DNA of 10,646 nucleotides, from the IMG/VR virus record IMGVR_UViG_3300029459_000089; one strand, written 5' to 3'. Below, one piece after another: positions 1 through 10,646 of this stretch. The position numbers and the translations under genes are program-made. Positions within the stretch are counted from its first letter, which is position 1, and each line of letters begins with the position of its first letter. The notes under the pieces are model-generated. The model searched no databases. It saw only the letters and a list, made by a program, of their open reading frames with translations, and was not told the DNA's origin. This DNA comes from a virus. Its lineage: Duplodnaviria > Heunggongvirae > Uroviricota > Caudoviricetes.

Positions 1-3000
1 CGTACACGGTCAGCGCCTCGGTAAGCGACAAAGCGGGTAACCCGGCGACCGCCACTCACGGCCTGGCGGTGGATCTCACCGTGCCAGTTTTAACCATTAA
101 CACCGTCTCCGGCGATGACATCATTAATGCCGCCGAACACGGGCAGGCGCTGGTGATCTCCGGTTCCAGCACTGGCGGGGAAGCGGGCGATGTCATCACC
201 ATCACGTTAAACAGTAAAACCTACACTACCACGCTGGACGCCTCCGGCAACTGGAGCGTCGGCGTTCCGGCAGCAGACGTCACTGCGCTGGGCAGCGGCC
301 CGCAAACCATCACTGCGGCAATTACCGATGCGGCAGGCAACAGCGATGATGCCAGCCGCACGCTCACCGTGAATCTCACCTCGCCAACCATTGGTATCAA
401 CACTATCGCCAGCGATGACGTGATTAACGCCACAGAAAAAGGCGCGGATCTGCAAATTACTGGCACCAGTAATCAGCCCGCAGGCACCACCATTACAGTG
501 ACGCTGAACGGACAAAATTACACCGCTACCACCGATAGCAGTGGCAACTGGAGCGCCACGGTGCCAGCCTCGGCAGCTAGCGCGTTGGGTGAAGCCAACT
601 ACACGGTAACGGCGAGCGTTACCGACACGGCAGGCAACAGTAATTCCGCCAGCCATAATGTGCTGGTCAACAGCGCCTTACCTGGCGTTACCATTAACGC
701 AGTGGCAACCGATGACATTATTAATGCCGCCGAAGCGGGCAGTGCGCAAACCATCAGCGGGCAGGTGACGGGCGCGGCGGCGGGCGATACGGTCACCGTC
801 ACGCTGGGCGGCAACACCTACATCGCTACGGTGCAGGCTAATTTAAGCTGGAGTGTCAGCGTTCCGGCGGCGGATATTCAGGCGCTGGGTAACGGCGACC
901 TGACAGTTAACGCCTCGGTCACCAATGGCGTTGGCAACACGGGCAGCGGCTCGCGGGATATCACTATCGATGCCAATCTGCCTGGTTTGCGGGTCGATAC
1001 CGTAGCGGGCGATGATGTTATTAACAGCATTGAGCACAATCAGGCGCTGGTGATAACAGGTAGCAGCACCGGGCTGACGGCAGGAACGGCATTAACGGTC
1101 GTGATTAACAACGTCACTTACGCTGCCACGGTGTTAGCTGACGGTACATGGAACCTCGGCGTTCCGGCGGCAGACGTCAGCAACTGGCCTGCGGGTACGG
1201 CGGATATCACGGTAAGCGGTACTAACAGCGCTGGAACAACCTCCACCATTACCCATCCGGTTACCGTCGATCTGGCGGCGGTCGCCATAACCATTAACAC
1301 TCTCTCCGGCGATGATGTGATCAATGCCGTCGAAAAAGGCGAAACGCTGGTGGTGAGCGGCAGTACCAGCGGTGTAGAAGCCGGGCAGAGGTGACCGTCA
1401 CCTTTGGCGGCAAAAATTACACCACCACCGTGGAAGCCAACGGTAGCTGGACGGTGAATGTGCCGCCTGCCGATCTCGCTGCGTTGCCGGACGGCGCGGG
1501 CAACGTGCAGGCGAGTGTCAGCAACATTAACGGCAACAGCGCCCAGGCCGATCGCGCGTACAGCGTCGATGCCACCGCGCCGCTTGTGACCATCAACACC
1601 ATCGCCAGCGACGATATTCTCAACGTGAGTGAAGCGGGCGCGGGGATAACCATCAGCGGCACCACCACGGCGCAGGCCGGGCAGACGCTGACTGTCACGC
1701 TCAATAACAACACGTACCAGACCACCGTTCAGGCGGATGGCACCTGGAGCGTGAACGTTCCGGCGACAGATTTAAGCGGATTAACCGCCAGCAGTTATAC
1801 CGTGACCGCCACGGTGAGCGACAAAGCGGGTAATCCGGCAAGCGTCGATCATGCACTGGCGGTGGACGTTACCGCGCCGGATCTCACCATTAACACCGTC
1901 GCGGGAGATGACATTATCAACGCCATCGAACACGGGCAGGCGCTGGTGGTGAGCGGAACCAGTACGGGCGCGGCGGCAGGCGATGTGGTGACCGTCACGC
2001 TGAACGGTAAAAACTACACCACAACGCTGGACGCCTCCGGTAACTGGAGTGTGGGTATTCCGGCGGCGGATGTCACGGCACTGGCAATCGGTAGCCAGAC
2101 CATCACCGCCAGCCTGAGCGATCGCGCGGGCAACAGCGACAGCACGACTCACGATGTGACCGTTGATCTCAGTGGCCCGACGCTGACCATTAACACTGTC
2201 TCCGGCGATGACATTATTAATAATGCGGAGAAAACCCAGGATCTGATCATCAGCGGCGGATCCAGCGGTCTGGCGGCAGGCACCACGGTCACTGTGATGT
2301 TGAACGGCCTGGCGTACAGCGCCACCACCGACGGCTCCGGCAACTGGAGCGTTACCGTGCCGGCTTCGGCGGTCGGCGCACTGGGCGAGGCGGTTTATTC
2401 GATTAGCGCCAGCGCCACCGACAGCGCGGGTAACAGCGGTAGTACTACCCATACGGTGAATGTCGAATCGCTCCTGCCAGGGGTAATCATTAATACTGTG
2501 GCGGGTGATGACATTATCAACGCCGCTGAAATCGCCGTTAACCAGACCCTCAGCGGTCAGGTGACGGGGACGGCAGCAGCAGGAGATTCGGTCACTGTCA
2601 CGCTCGGCGGTAATCAATACATTGCCACCGTGCAGCCAGATTTAAGCTGGAGCGTCAGCGTGCCTGCGGTAGATTTGCAGGCGCTGGGTAACGGTGAACT
2701 GACCATCAGCGCCTCGGTGACCAATTCCGCAAATAATACCGGCACCGCGACGCACGATATCGTGATAGATGCTAACTTGCCAGGTCTGCGGGTTGATACC
2801 GTGGCAGGCGATGATGTGATTAACAGCATTGAGCACACTCAGGCACTGGTGGTCACCGGTAGCAGTAGCGGACTGGCGGCGGGCGCGGCGTTGACGGTGG
2901 TTATCAATAGCGTCACCTACGGCGCAACGGTACTCGCCGATGGCACCTGGAGCGTCGGCGTTCCGGCGANNNNNNNNNNNNNNNNNNNNNNNNNNNNNNN

Positions 3001-6000
3001 NNNNNNNNNNNNNNNNCAATATTGCCGTCTCTGGCACCAATACCGCAGGAACCACAACCAGCATTACTCATCCGGTCACCGTCGATCTTGCGGCCGTGGC
3101 GATTACCATCAACACCCTTTCCACTGACGATGTGATAAACGCCGCCGAGAAAGGCACTGATTTGCAGCTTTCCGGCACCACCTCCGGCGTGGAAGCGGGG
3201 CAGACTATTACCGTTATTTTCGGTGGCAAAAGCTACACCACCACGGTTGCCGCGGATAATACCTGGGGGCTGACGATCCCAGCAGCCGATCTCGCAACCT
3301 TGCCGGATGGCGCAGCAAACATCCAGGCCAGCGTCAGCAACGTCGCGGGTAACAACGCCCAGGCAACGCATGTTTATAGCGTCGATGCCACCGCGCCCTC
3401 CGTTACTATCAACACCATCGCCAGCGACGATATTCTTAATGCCGCCGAAGCGGGATCGGCGCTGACCATCAGCGGCACCAGCACCGCAGAAGCCGGGCAG
3501 ACAGTGACCGTGACGCTAAACGGCATCAATTACAGCGGCAACGTGCAGGCAGACGGGAGCTGGAGCGTCAGCGTACCAACTGGCGATTTAGCCGACCTTA
3601 CCGCCAGCTCCTATACGGTGAGCGCGGCGGTCAGCGACAAAGCGGGCAACCCGACCTCGGTAACGCATAATCTGGCGGTGGACCTTGCCGCTCCAGTCGT
3701 CACCATTAACACGGTAGCGGGCGATGACGTGATTAACGCCACGGAACATGCCCAGGCGCAGATTATCAGCGGCTCGGCAACGGGCGCGACGACGGGTAAC
3801 ACGGTTTCCGTGACGATTGGCACGACCACCTACACCACCGTGCTGGACGCCAACGGCAACTGGAGCATCGGTGTGCCTGCCAGCGTGATTTCCGCACTGG
3901 AGCAGGGTGATGTAACCATTACCGCCACGGTTACCGACTCCGCAGGCAACAGCGGCACGGCCTCGCACACTGTCAGCGTGGCGCTCGGTGCACCGATACT
4001 CGCCATTAACACCATCGCCGTCGATGACATCATCAACGCCACGGAGAAAGGCGCGGATCTGTCGATTTCCGGCACCAGCAACCAGCCTGCGGGCACGCAG
4101 GTAACTGTTACGCTCAACGGGCAAAATTACACCACCACTGCCGATGCTTCCGGGAACTGGAGCGTGACTGTTCCGGCGTCTGCGGTTGGTACGCTCGGTG
4201 AAGCGACTTATACGGTGACTGCCGCCGCAACCGATGTTGATGGCAATAGCGGTTCCGCCAGCCATAACGTGCAGGTTAATACCGCGCTACCGGGCGTCAC
4301 CATTAACGTTGTGGCAACGGACGATATTATTAACGCCGCCGAAGCGGGGGCAACTCAAACTATCAGCGGGCAGGTCACGAGGGCCGTGGCGGGCGATACG
4401 GTGACCGTGACGCTCGGTGGGGCGACTTACACCGCTACGGTACAGGCAGACTTAAGCTGGAGTGTCGATGTTCCGGCTTCGGCGTTACAGGCGTTGGGCA
4501 ACGGAGAGCTGACCATTTCGGCTTCGGTAACGAACAGCGTTGGCAATACCGGTAACGGCACGCGCGAAATCACCATAGACGCGAATCTCCCCGGTCTGCG
4601 GGTCGATACCGTAGCGGGCGATGACGTGGTCAACATTATCGAGCATGGGCAGGCGCTGGTGATTACCGGCAGCAGCTCTGGGCTGGCGGTGGGTAGCAAT
4701 GTCACGCTGACCATTAACGGGCAAACCTATGTTGCGGCAGTNNNNNNNNNNGGCGGATGGCACCTGGAGCGTCGGCGTTCCGGCGGTGGATGTCAGCGCC
4801 TGGCCTGCGGGGGCGGTGACGATTACGGCGAGCGGCAGCACTACCGCCGGAAACTCGGTCAGCGTTACGCATCCAGTGACTGTCGATCTCTCGGCGGTGG
4901 CGGTCAGGATCAACGCCATTACCGCCGATGATGTGATTAACGCCGCTGAAAAAGGCGCGGCATTAACGCTCTCCGGCAGCACCTCTGGCGTGGAGGCCGG
5001 GCAAACGGTCACCGTGACCTTTGGCGGTAAAACCTATACTGCAAGAGTCGCGGCGAATGGTTCCTGGAGCACCACGGTTCCGGCGGCGGATATGGCAGCC
5101 CTGCGTGATGGTGATGCCAGCGCGCAGGCCAGCGTCAGCAACGTTAACGGCAACAGTGCCACCACTACCCACGCTTACAGCGTCGATGCCACCGCGCCAA
5201 CGGTGACCATTAACACCATTGCGGGCGACGATATTCTTAACGCCGCCGAAGCGGGTGCGGCGCTGACCATCACCGGCAGCAGCACGGCGGAAGCCGGGCA
5301 GACGGTGACCGTCACGCTCAATGGCGCAAACTATACTGGCACGGTACAAACGGACGGCAGCTGGAGTATCAGCGTGCCGTCAGCCGACTTAAGCGCCCTG
5401 ACCGCCAGCAACTACACCGTTAGCGCGGCGGTGAGCGACAAAGCCGGAAACCCGGCCTCCGCTAACCATAACCTGACGGTGGATACATCCGTTCCGGTCG
5501 TCACCATCAACACGGTGGCGGGCGATGATGTGATCAACGCGACGGAACACGCCCAGGCGCAGATCATCAGCGGCTCCGCCACGGGTGCGGCAACCGGTAG
5601 CACCGTGACGGTGACTATCGGCACAAACACCTTTACCACCGTGCTGGATGCCAGCGGCAACTGGAGCGTCGGCGTTCCGGCAAGCGTCGTCTCGGCGCTG
5701 GCGAACGGCACGGTGACCATTAACGCCAGCGTCACCGACGCCGCCGGAAACAGCGGCAACGCCACGCATCAGGTGACGGTCAATACGGGTCTGCCGTCAA
5801 TTACCTTTAACGCCATCAGCGGCGATAACGTCCTGAATGCCGATGAAAAAGGCCAGCCGTTGACCATCAGCGGTAGCAGTACGGGGCTGGCGACGGGCGC
5901 ACAGGTTACCGTCACGCTCAACGGTCATAACTACAGCGCCACCACCGACGCGGCGGGCAACTGGACCTTAACCGTTCCGGTCAGCGATCTGGCGGCTCTA

Positions 6001-9000
6001 GGTCAGGCCAACTATACCGTCAGCGCCAGTGCCACCAGTGCGGCAGGCAACACCGCCAGCAGCCAGGCGAATTTACTGGTCGACAGCGGCCTGCCGGGCG
6101 TCACCATCAATACTGTGGCGGACGACGATATTATCAACGCCGCCGAAGCCGGGGCCGATCAAACCATCAGCGGAGTGGTCACTCGTGCCGCCGCAGGCGA
6201 TACGGTTACCGTGACGCTGGGTGGCAATACTTATACTGCACAAGTTCAGGCCGATTTAAGCTGGAGCGTCAGCGTTCCGGCAGCCGATCTCCAGGCGTTG
6301 GGCAATGGCGATTTGACCATTAACGCCTCGGTTACCAACGCGAATGGCAATACGGGTAGCGGCACGCGAGATATCACCATTGACGCCAACCTGCCAGGTC
6401 TGCGCGTGGATACCGTGGCGGGTGATGATATCGTCAACAGCATCGAACACGGGCAGGCGCTGGTGATCACCGGCGGCAGTAGCGGCCTGAATGCAGGCGC
6501 AGCGCTGACGGTCACCATCAACGGTGTGGCCTATGCCGCCACGGTACAGGCTGACGGTAGCTGGAGCGTTGGCATTCCGGCGGCGAACGTTAGCGCATGG
6601 CCAGCGGGGCCGTTGGCCGTTGACGTGGCAGGACAGAGCAGCGCCGGAAATCCGGTCAGCGTCAGCCATCCGTTCACCGTCGATTTAACGGCGGTGGCGA
6701 TCAGCATCAACACCGTTGCCAGCGACGACGTGATTAACGCCGCCGAGAAAGGCACCAATCTGACCCTTTCCGGCAGTACCAGCGGGATTGAAAGCGGGCA
6801 AACCGTCACCGTCACTTTTGGCGGCAAAACCTACACCGCAAGCATCGCCGCCAACGGAAGCTGGAGCGTGAATGTTCCGGCGGCAGATCTGGCATCTCTG
6901 CCAGACGGCGCGGCGAATGTACAGGCCAGCGTTAGCAGCGCGAGCGGCAACAGCGCCTCGGCGACCCATGCGTATAGCGTTGACGCCAGCGCACCGACGC
7001 TCACCATAAACACCATCGCCAGCGACGATATCCTTAACGCCACAGAGGCCGGAAGCCCGCTCACCATCAGCGGTACCAGCACCGCCGAAACCGGGCAGAC
7101 GGTCACCGTCACTCTTAACGGTGCAACCTACAGCGGCACTGTACAGGCGGATGGTAGCTGGAGCGTCAGCGTTCCCACTTCAGCCTTAGGCGCGCTAACC
7201 GCAAGCAATTACACCGTCAGCGCCACGGTCAACGACAAAGCAGGCAACCCCGGCAGCGCCAGCCATAATCTGGCGATAGACACCACCGCGCCGGTTCTTA
7301 CCATTAACACCGTCGCAGGCGATGACATCATCAACGACGCCGAACACGCCCAGGCGCTGGTGATTTCCGGCACCAGTACCGGCGGGGAAGCGGGCGATGT
7401 GGTGAGCGTTGTGCTCAACGGCAAAACGTATACCACGACGCTGGATGCCTCCGGCAACTGGAGCGTTGGCGTACCGGCGGCGGATGTTACGGCACTGGGT
7501 AGCGGCGCACAGACCATCACCGCCAGCGTCAGCGATCGGGCGGGTAACAGCGACGACGCCAGCCGCACCGTGACCGTCAGCCTCAGCGCGCCAGTGATTA
7601 GCATCAACACCATCGCGGGCGATGATGTGATCAACGCGATGGAAAAAGGATCAAATCTGGCGCTTTCCGGCACCAGCGATCAGCCTGCGGGTACGGCGAT
7701 CACCGTGACGCTGAATGGACAAAACTACAGCGCCACCACCGATGCCTCCGGCAACTGGAGCGTTACCGTGCCTGCCTCGGCAGTCAGTGCGCTGGGCGAA
7801 GCGACATATAGCGTCACGGCGAGCGTCACCAACGCCCAGGGCAACAGCAGTACTGCCAGCCATAATGTGCAGGTCATTACCGCGCTGCCGGGCGTCACCA
7901 TTAATCCGGTGGCGACGGACGATATTATCAATGCTTCAGAGGCGGGCAGCGCGCAAACTATCAGCGGCCAGGTAACCGGGGCGGTGGCTGGCAGCACCGT
8001 CACCGTTGAACTGGGTGGTAAAACTTACACCGCCACCGTCCAGGCTGATTTAAGCTGGAATGTAAGCGTACCAGCCGCTGACTGGCAGGCGTTAGGTAAC
8101 GGTGAATTAACGGTTAATGCCTCGGTGACCAACGCCGTTGGCAACACCGGCAGCGGCATGCGTGATATCACCATCGATGCCAGTCTGCCCGGTCTGCGGG
8201 TGGATACCGTCGCGGGCGATGATGTGGTCAATATCATCGAACACGCTCAGGCGCAGGTGATTACCGGGAGCAGCTCTGGCTTTACGGCAGGCACGGCGCT
8301 GACCGTGGTGATAAATAACCAAACTTATGCCGCCACGGTGTTGGCGAACGGCAGCTGGAGCGTCGGCGTTCCGGCGGCGGATGTCAGTAACTGGCCTGCG
8401 GGAACGCTGAATATTACCGTTAGCGGCGCGAACAGTGCCGGAACGCAAACCAGCATTACCCATCCGCTGACCGTTGATCTCACTACCGTTGCCATCAGCA
8501 TTAACGCTATTACCCCTGATGATGTGATTAACGCCGCCGAAAAAGGCGCGGCGCTAACGCTTTCCGGCAGCACGTCCGGCGTCGAAGCGGGGCAAACCGT
8601 TACTATTACCTTTGGCGGCAAAACCTACACCACCACGGTGGCGGCAAACGGTAGCTGGAGCACCACCGTTCCGACTGCGGATTTGGCGGCTTTGCGTGAC
8701 GGCGATGCCAGCGCCCAGGTGCGGGTGACTAACGTCAACGGCAACAGCGCCACGACAACGCATGAATACAGCGTCGATAGCGCCGCGCCAACGGTGACCA
8801 TCAACACCATTGCCAGCGATAACATCATCAACGCCAGCGAAGCGGCGGCGGGCGTCACGGTGTCCGGCACCAGCACCGCGGAAACCGGGCAGACGCTGAC
8901 CGTCACGCTTAATGGCACTAACTACCAGACCACGGTGCAGGCAGACGGCAGCTGGAGCTTAACGCTGCCTGCCAGTGACCTAACCGCACTTGCCAATAAC

Positions 9001-10646: not shown

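Follow-up and report, generated by a model that had tools for sequence, protein, structure and literature searches.

Module subtypes of the siiEA adhesin gene form an old mosaic across super-repeat units, a probable relic of recombination between them

The 10,646 nucleotides of DNA analyzed here as one stretch (IMG/VR record IMGVR_UViG_3300029459_000089; hereafter, the window) are an internal 10.6-kb portion of siiEA, the gene for a type I-secreted adhesin of the BapA/RTX class with ~6,900 amino acids. Most of the window is a tandem array of immunoglobulin-like (Ig-like) modules that falls into five super-repeat units of six module types each, and the subtypes of these modules are combined differently in every unit. 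Our results make it likely that this subtype mosaic is the fossil of homologous recombination between super-repeat units, ancient and fixed by now, and not the product of ongoing gene conversion. In the searchable literature on SiiEA and BapA/RTX repeats, we found no earlier description of a super-repeat mosaic in siiEA.

Results

The plus strand of the window is a single open reading frame (ORF), open at both ends, which after the mending of one frameshift and two runs of N continues for 3,540 codons with zero stops. By megablast, siiEA ("BapA-related adhesin SiiEA") is matched in 959 of 5,426 complete Escherichia coli genomes (~18%). The copy of E. coli EC42405, which measures 20,772 nucleotides (6,923 amino acids) and lies between ybaT and cueR on a complete chromosome, is collinear with the window in two blocks that are broken only by the first N-run. 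Positions 1 to 2968 of the window correspond to 9024 to 11992 of the EC42405 locus (L061) at 97.5% nucleotide identity, and positions 3017 to 10646 correspond to 12025 to 19641 at 95.9%. Module order is the same in the E. coli gene and in the window copy, which differs in its frameshift and its two gaps and whose best E. coli match stands at ~95 to 97%, as befits a source that is a related strain or lineage.

The ends of the protein lie outside the window and were read in the EC42405 orthologue, where the N terminus scores 510.6 bits against SiiEA (NF047714; cutoff, 425) and the BapA_N prefix domain scores 70 bits (cutoff, 35). The window likewise stops before the region of the type I secretion target domain (TIGR03661; 33 bits in the orthologue, cutoff 17.6), and a GGNDTLNIGNGGHDTL motif of RTX-like Gly/Asp repeats is found near the C terminus of the same protein. 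As for the modules, unit U4 of the window matches Ca_tandemer (NCBIfam NF033510) in six stretches with 549 bits against a cutoff of 50, the Pfam family Big_13 matches the modules with an E value of 2e-35, and the MpIBP RII tetra-tandemer (PDB 4P99; E = 3e-55) is a homologue of solved structure.

With the conserved DD.[ILV]N motif as the anchor for module starts, the window contains 35 Ig-like modules of 99 to 101 amino acids each, the first 30 of which make up five 1.8-kb units (U1 to U5) with six module types (T1 to T6). Amino acid identity in the window is 55 to 87% within a module type and at most 59% between types, and same-type modules are 58 to 79% identical in DNA. Tandem Repeats Finder reported nothing in the window, the 300- and 1,800-nucleotide copies being only 58 to 85% identical and the 1.8-kb period exceeding its 500-nucleotide limit. 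The complete E. coli gene consists of five leading modules (P1 to P5), seven six-module units (A to G, with U1 to U5 corresponding to C to G), modules H1 to H5, other domains, and the secretion signal.

All of these features lie on the plus strand. The reading frame is already open on entry, and positions 3 to 77 hold the C-terminal tail of the module before U1, which in the complete E. coli gene is T6 of unit B. U1 (unit C, 78 to 1870) comprises T1 at 78 to 377 (EHGQALV/GGEAGD), T2 at 378 to 674 (SNQPAG), T3 at 675 to 974, T4 at 975 to 1274, T5 at 1275 to 1573 (LPDGA), and T6 at 1574 to 1870. U2 (unit D, 1871 to 3686) comprises T1 at 1871 to 2170 (EHGQALV), T2 at 2171 to 2470 (SSGLAAG, of the D2 lineage that Enterobacter and Citrobacter share), T3 at 2471 to 2773, T4 at 2774 to 3089, which holds an N-run, T5 at 3090 to 3389 (LPDGA), and T6 at 3390 to 3686. 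In U3 (unit E, 3687 to 5487), T1 lies at 3687 to 3986 (EHAQAQII), T2 at 3987 to 4283 (SNQPAG), T3 at 4284 to 4583, T4 at 4584 to 4890, again with an N-run, T5 at 4891 to 5190 (LRDGDASAQ), and T6 at 5191 to 5487. In U4 (unit F, 5488 to 7284), T1 lies at 5488 to 5787 (EHAQAQII), T2 at 5788 to 6087 (STGLATG, of the F2 lineage that Salmonella, Enterobacter, and Citrobacter share), T3 at 6088 to 6387, T4 at 6388 to 6687, T5 at 6688 to 6987 (LPDGA), and T6 at 6988 to 7284. U5 (unit G, 7285 to 9078) is made up of T1 at 7285 to 7584 (EHAQALV/GGEAGD), T2 at 7585 to 7881 (SDQPAG), T3 at 7882 to 8181, T4 at 8182 to 8481, T5 at 8482 to 8781 (LRDGDASAQ), and T6 at 8782 to 9078, whose G6 lineage is the terminal T6 in all genera examined. 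Module H1 (9079 to 9378) is T1-like and nearest to the EHAQAQII subtype (63 to 66% amino acid identity to T1 of U3 and U4), and it is a conserved positional module across all genera examined. Modules H2 to H5 and the start of the next region (9379 to 10644) are divergent and stand outside the six-type periodicity, and the ORF leaves the window at its end.

The initial annotation of this DNA had divided T1, T2, and T5 into subtypes, and the module starts that it gave are all exact. For T1, we recovered its EHGQALV/GGEAGD-like subtype at 78, 1871, and 7285 and its EHAQAQIISGSATGA subtype at 3687 and 5488, with a related module at 9079. The T2 motif SNQPAG/SDQPAG is present at 378, 3987, and 7585. 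The other T2 motif, SSGLAAG/STGLATG, does occur at 2171 and 5788, but these two modules form no real group, as they are 54% identical in amino acids and 59% in nucleotides and match two separate old lineages conserved in Enterobacter and Citrobacter. For T5, LPDGA at 1275, 3090, and 6688 and LRDGDASAQ at 4891 and 8482 were found as described, but the LPDGA trio is a loose grade of 69 to 72% nucleotide identity rather than a tight cluster. The combination of T1, T2, and T5 subtypes is indeed unlike in every one of the five units. Subtype differences span the full length of the module in the protein alignment, beyond any single motif, and 31 biallelic sites back the split within T1, over three times the number for any other split in that type. 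A coupling of the T6 subtype to the subtype of the next T1, as an interface constraint, was also considered, and inspection showed no consistent pairing.

Per-type trees bear out the proposal that the units are not simple serial duplicates. We evaluated the five units by parsimony over all 15 five-taxon topologies, with bootstrap and a permutation null for the incongruence length difference (ILD), and found the trees to be significantly incongruent (ILD = 31, versus a null of 8.2 +/- 3.8 with a maximum of 26; P = 0.0002). The parsimony bootstrap joins U3 and U4 in T1 (100%), U2 and U4 in T2 (89%), U3 and U5 in T5 (92%), and both U1 with U5 (86%) and U2 with U3 (77%) in T6. By maximum likelihood under a Jukes-Cantor plus gamma model, the best single topology costs 12.6 log-likelihood units when forced on T5, and T1 loses 42 units on topologies that lack the pair of U3 and U4. 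Mutually congruent per-type trees with whole units as clean clades, which by the initial annotation would have spoken against its reading, were not obtained; the trees conflict.

The conflict also appears in trees that combine the window modules with their positional orthologues from five other genomes, in which long branches are broken. There, T1 supports AEF (bootstrap 100), EF (98.5), BC (99), and BCG (88), T2 supports BC (100) and DF (99), T5 supports EG (99.5), and T6 supports ACG (93.5). These splits are mutually incompatible, and the incongruence is best explained by recombination between units. Incongruence along the unit is a feature common to gene conversion and unequal crossing-over and is specific to neither.

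When the five-unit alignment was segmented by dynamic programming, with the 15 topologies as alternatives, breakpoints fell at alignment columns ~345, 639, 1223, and 1536, which is 17 to 45 nucleotides past the module starts at columns 300, 603, 1206, and 1506. Shuffled site orders yielded a mean of 0.9 breakpoints against these four, and overall 2 to 4 breakpoints were obtained against null means of 0.05 to 0.9. The breakpoints thus sit in the stretch that encodes TINTxAGDDIxN, where between-unit DNA identity peaks at 77 to 80%, with a second peak at columns 165 to 180, and most exact runs of 20 to 30 nucleotides fall within these two peaks. One such identity island, the 29-nucleotide ATCAACACCATCGCCAGCGACGATATTCT at 1592 to 1620 on the plus strand, marks the start of T6 in U1 and has an identical second copy at 3408 to 3436 on the same strand, at the start of T6 in U2. 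The island at 1592 to 1620 is the crossover site of a one-unit deletion in E. coli 266917_2.

A GENECONV-style run test, which had been proposed for the units, revealed no convincing identical tract in the window: the longest run covers 14 polymorphic sites (~15 to 25 nucleotides), the best global P value is 0.03, and the rest exceed 0.09. Exact in-register matches between units reach at most 30 nucleotides. Among identical amino acids, codon identity is 45 to 70% for all unit pairs against a background of ~50 to 55%. Subtype partners stay at background (53% for E1 and F1, 58% for E5 and G5), and only the youngest pair, B and C, reaches 65 to 69%.

The order A1 to G6 followed by H1 to H5 is common to E. 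coli, E. ruysiae, Escherichia sp. E1V33, Enterobacteriaceae bacterium G50, and Pseudocitrobacter faecalis. Amino acid identity is 85 to 100% for positional orthologues and 55 to 90% for paralogues, and in these genomes paralogues are not closer to each other within a genome than orthologues are between genomes, as they would be under concerted evolution. In the T5 and T6 trees each unit is a clade with 100% bootstrap, which mostly holds for T1 and T2 too, and exceptions to this orthologue-first grouping are confined to T3 and T4 of units A to D in single genomes. The comparison with orthologues that the initial annotation had called for thus sharpened the incongruence, but it revealed an arrangement frozen by position, with no active homogenization.

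The six-type period recurs in homologues from Salmonella, Enterobacter, and Citrobacter, together with recognizable A1, C1/D1, F1, SNQP, D2, and F2 lineages. In these three genera, every F1 is succeeded by F2 and every D2 is preceded by a D1-type module, and the pairing seen in U3 (F1-type T1 with SNQP-type T2) did not occur in the loci that we read. T5 is always L[RK]DGDASVQ there, and LPDGA therefore looks derived in Escherichia. Seven units are present in Escherichia and five in Salmonella, Enterobacter, and Citrobacter, and the six-module period persists across at least six genera. Given the lack of long identical tracts, the background level of codon identity, the conserved order, and the presence of the subtypes in other genera, the mosaic is old.

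Rearrangements of the same array were observed in relatives of the window copy. Unit counts were taken from annotated gene lengths and module maps; whole-window megablast gave joined paralogous pieces. E. coli siiEA alleles of 20,772, 18,975, and 17,187 nucleotides have seven, six, and five units, respectively. E. coli 266917_2 (L064) and WP3-W18-ESBL-08 (L066) carry the 18,975-nucleotide form, which is 1,797 nucleotides shorter, lacks C6 to D5, and contains a hybrid unit C1-C5|D6 whose switch lies inside a 29-nucleotide stretch identical in C6 and D6. E. coli GPEC1446 (L065; 17,187 nucleotides) has lost two units (E6 to G5) and has a hybrid E1-E5|G6 with its junction at the T5/T6 boundary, and E. 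coli GPEC1337 (L067) has lost the single module F3 by out-of-register exchange in a shared motif. In each of the three deletions, the junction is no more than ~50 nucleotides into a module, where the ancient breakpoints also map, and every structural variant among the sampled E. coli alleles is a deletion with a hybrid junction.

In the s1 homologue of Salmonella enterica (L005, ~3712 to 12700), a staggered one-unit duplication of T2 to T6 plus T1 (96 to 98% nucleotide identity) runs out of step with the unit frame and thereby mimics a mosaic without any conversion. T3 to T5 are 86 to 98% identical in nucleotides across all five units of this gene and the T1, T2, and T6 subtypes 57 to 76%, so that homogenization is confined to half of each unit. 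Conversion is seen as well: in Enterobacteriaceae bacterium G50 (L001), ~100 nucleotides of C3 (columns ~135 to 240) are 97 to 98% identical to the B3 of the same genome but only 83 to 87% identical to C3 of the other genomes. Orthologous sequence flanks this patch on either side in an array of unchanged length, a signature of conversion that this relative has and the window does not. In P. faecalis (L003), A4 is B4/D4-like over ~230 nucleotides and is a probable conversion patch. Units B and C of E. coli are 83 to 85% identical in nucleotides over T1 to T4 and 71% over T5 and T6, and the A6/B6 pair is 65% identical. A single staggered whole-unit duplication fails to account for the similarity of B and C, as A6 and B6 are the least similar pair of T6 modules.

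The frameshift in the window is a one-nucleotide deletion at 1389/1390 on the plus strand (GGGCAGA-GGTGACC, versus GGGCAGACGGTGACC in E. coli EC42405) that moves the coding sequence from frame 3 to frame 2 and may be either a sequencing error in a draft assembly or the mark of a genuine pseudogene. A pseudogene annotation of siiEA is found in O157:H7 ECP19-798 and in Combat11I9. Neither assembly gap is length-true, and neither is assigned to a strand: 47 N at 2970 to 3016 stand for 32 nucleotides of the E. coli orthologue, and 10 N at 4742 to 4751 stand for 3. Both N-runs alter the apparent reading frame, which marks them as padded scaffold gaps rather than masked sequence and, together with the frameshift, indicates that the window comes from a scaffolded draft. 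The minus strand has many long antisense ORFs of up to 278 amino acids across the repeat array (for example, at 1781 to 2617 and 3588 to 4265), which we would guess to be no genes but by-products of the GC-rich, repetitive coding sequence.

The window has no flanks. In complete E. coli genomes, siiEA is part of a type I secretion operon located between ybaT and cueR. In EC42405, siiEA adjoins genes for a TolC-family protein, a type I secretion system ABC permease/ATPase, and an HlyD-family protein, and the same three are adjacent in every E. coli locus fetched with its full flank (the stretch from GPEC1337 stops inside the ABC gene). Upstream of siiEA, EC42405 (L061, 1733 to 3088) and GPEC1446 (L065, 7266 to 8621) have a TolC-family gene that is annotated as a pseudogene with an internal stop, although siiEA is intact in both strains. 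In strain UMN026, siiEA is annotated as an "adhesin for cattle intestine colonization" (PMC3256949). Enterobacterial arrays of the siiEA/bapA type were also met in metagenome-assembled genomes labeled Collinsella sp. (L006; 71% amino acid identity to unit F) and Vibrio sp. (L051; 58%), and these contigs are probably misbinned.

Discussion

Our results support the initial annotation in part. Its interpretation, gene conversion between repeats, was right in kind, since recombination between units best explains the mosaic, but it was too specific and implied the wrong tempo, as neither conversion in particular nor a recent or ongoing process is demonstrated in the window. No new mechanism is involved. 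That the repeats of surface proteins recombine within a gene is well established, and what had been observed, accurately, is an ordinary process in a known and annotated gene.

We propose that exchanges between units occurred in register and began at short identity islands of no more than ~30 nucleotides, most of which lie toward the 5' ends of modules, in the conserved T-I-N-T-x-A-G-D-D-I-x-N stretch. Unequal crossing-over would have gained and lost units and left a hybrid unit at each junction, and occasional short-tract gene conversion may have overwritten a patch. In the lineage of the window, these events date from after the origin of the subtypes, which precedes the split of Escherichia, Salmonella, Enterobacter, and Citrobacter, and from before the radiation of Escherichia, and each module has since evolved as a positional orthologue without homogenization. 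Both processes occur in relatives, and from this we infer that crossing-over and/or conversion made this particular mosaic, in whatever proportion.

Several observations weigh against this interpretation. In the five units of the window alone, the maximum likelihood conflict is strong only for T1 versus T5, as T2 and T6 cost 1.6 to 2.5 log-likelihood units, and the conflicts of T2 and T6 become strong only once orthologues are added. The signal that groups the modules comes almost wholly from nonsynonymous positions, so it is protein similarity and the occurrence of the subtypes in other genera, rather than silent sites, from which their shared ancestry is read. The breakpoints are uncertain by tens of nucleotides, and their link to the conserved motif was noticed post hoc. 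Finally, the ancient events are beyond individual reconstruction.

Either process could be credited with more than we grant it. Gene conversion proper, in which patches were copied nonreciprocally at constant unit number, may have made most of the mosaic, a possibility that we regard as tentative. The similar tract of B and C speaks for it, as this measures 1.2 kb, less than a whole unit, and one unequal crossover cannot yield it, as do the clear patch in C3 of G50 and the probable one in A4 of P. faecalis. Moreover, unit G keeps the terminal G6 lineage and yet its T1 joins those of B and C (BCG, 88%), while the last unit in Salmonella and Enterobacter begins with F1/F2-type modules instead. 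However, the best run in the window (~15 nucleotides) is unconvincing, all structural variants of the sampled E. coli alleles, being deletions with hybrid junctions, point to crossing-over or slippage, the staggered duplication in Salmonella yields the same apparent mosaic, and repeated gain and loss of units with differing junctions can likewise give tracts shorter than a unit.

Conversely, the mosaic may be the sum of hybrid junctions left by unequal crossing-over or by staggered duplication and deletion, with no conversion at all, which seems to us just as doubtful. Such a history would fit the E. coli alleles of seven, six, and five units with their hybrid junction units in the shortened forms, the out-of-phase duplication in Salmonella, and the difference in unit number between Escherichia and the other three genera. 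It fits poorly with the four-module tract shared by B and C, which is not a multiple of the unit, and with the C3 patch of G50, which lies inside an otherwise orthologous module in an array of constant unit number.

The six-module period and the fixed, unit-specific subtype combinations may also be selected and not frozen accidents, although we consider this unlikely. Six modules could be the structural period of a Ca2+-stiffened rod or provide position-specific binding surfaces, or same-type modules could be kept too dissimilar in DNA for RecA to recombine them efficiently. In Escherichia, same-type modules of different units are 58 to 85% identical in DNA, the longest run that they share is ~30 nucleotides, and their silent sites are saturated. 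The persistence of the period across genera and the lack of homogenization in Escherichia are compatible with selection but do not demonstrate it. If identity were held down in this way, the mosaic would record selection for an extender that is recombination-resistant yet structurally uniform.

It is very improbable that the subtype motifs arose independently under selection, by convergent or parallel amino acid evolution and without exchange. In favor of convergence, the pairing of E with F in T1 and of E with G in T5 draws next to no signal from third codon positions and synonymous codons, which places the similarity at the protein level. Against this stand the 31 biallelic sites of the T1 split and the full-length reach of the subtype differences, the occurrence of the subtypes elsewhere in the arrays of other genera, which suits old lineages with saturated silent sites, the breakpoints at DNA identity islands, and the hybrid units that are forming today in E. 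coli alleles. An assembly artifact, in which a short-read assembler joined reads of different units into chimeras, is hardly conceivable despite the two N-runs and the frameshift of a scaffolded draft, because the window is collinear with a complete E. coli chromosome, the module order recurs in several independent complete genomes and four other species, and the units differ by 15 to 40% in DNA, too much for reads to be confused.

The repeats of RTX adhesin extenders are Ca2+-rigidified beta-sandwiches that keep the ligand-binding end off the cell surface (PMC7493085), and by analogy with these relatives the siiEA array may serve as an extender. In MpIBP, the repeats are 100% identical even in DNA (PMC7493085), so that region II, although its modules are homologous, stands for full concerted evolution, whereas siiEA has six diverged types, old subtypes, and no recent homogenization. 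Bap of Acinetobacter baumannii (PMC4647330) is likewise a giant biofilm adhesin with arrays of several Ig-like module types and is highly polymorphic between strains. It belongs, however, to another protein lineage with other module types, and that study treats polymorphism in array composition, not tree incongruence. A further relative is the BapA-type adhesin of Salmonella (Latasa et al. 2005, as cited in PMC4647330), whose s1 homologue shares the module family, the six-type super-repeat, the T1 and T2 subtypes, and H1 to H5. With five units, homogenized T3 to T5, and a recent staggered duplication, s1 displays active concerted evolution, whereas the Escherichia array is frozen at 58 to 85% identity.

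siiEA is a large and poorly studied adhesin gene, and its module grammar aids assembly and annotation. Seven six-module units, position-specific subtypes, and recombination-prone islands at module starts help to recognize alleles of seven, six, and five units and those that have lost a single module, and they help to tell pseudogenes from sequencing errors. The frozen super-repeat of Escherichia and the partly homogenized one of Salmonella together offer a natural contrast for the study of the limits to concerted evolution in bacterial repeat proteins.

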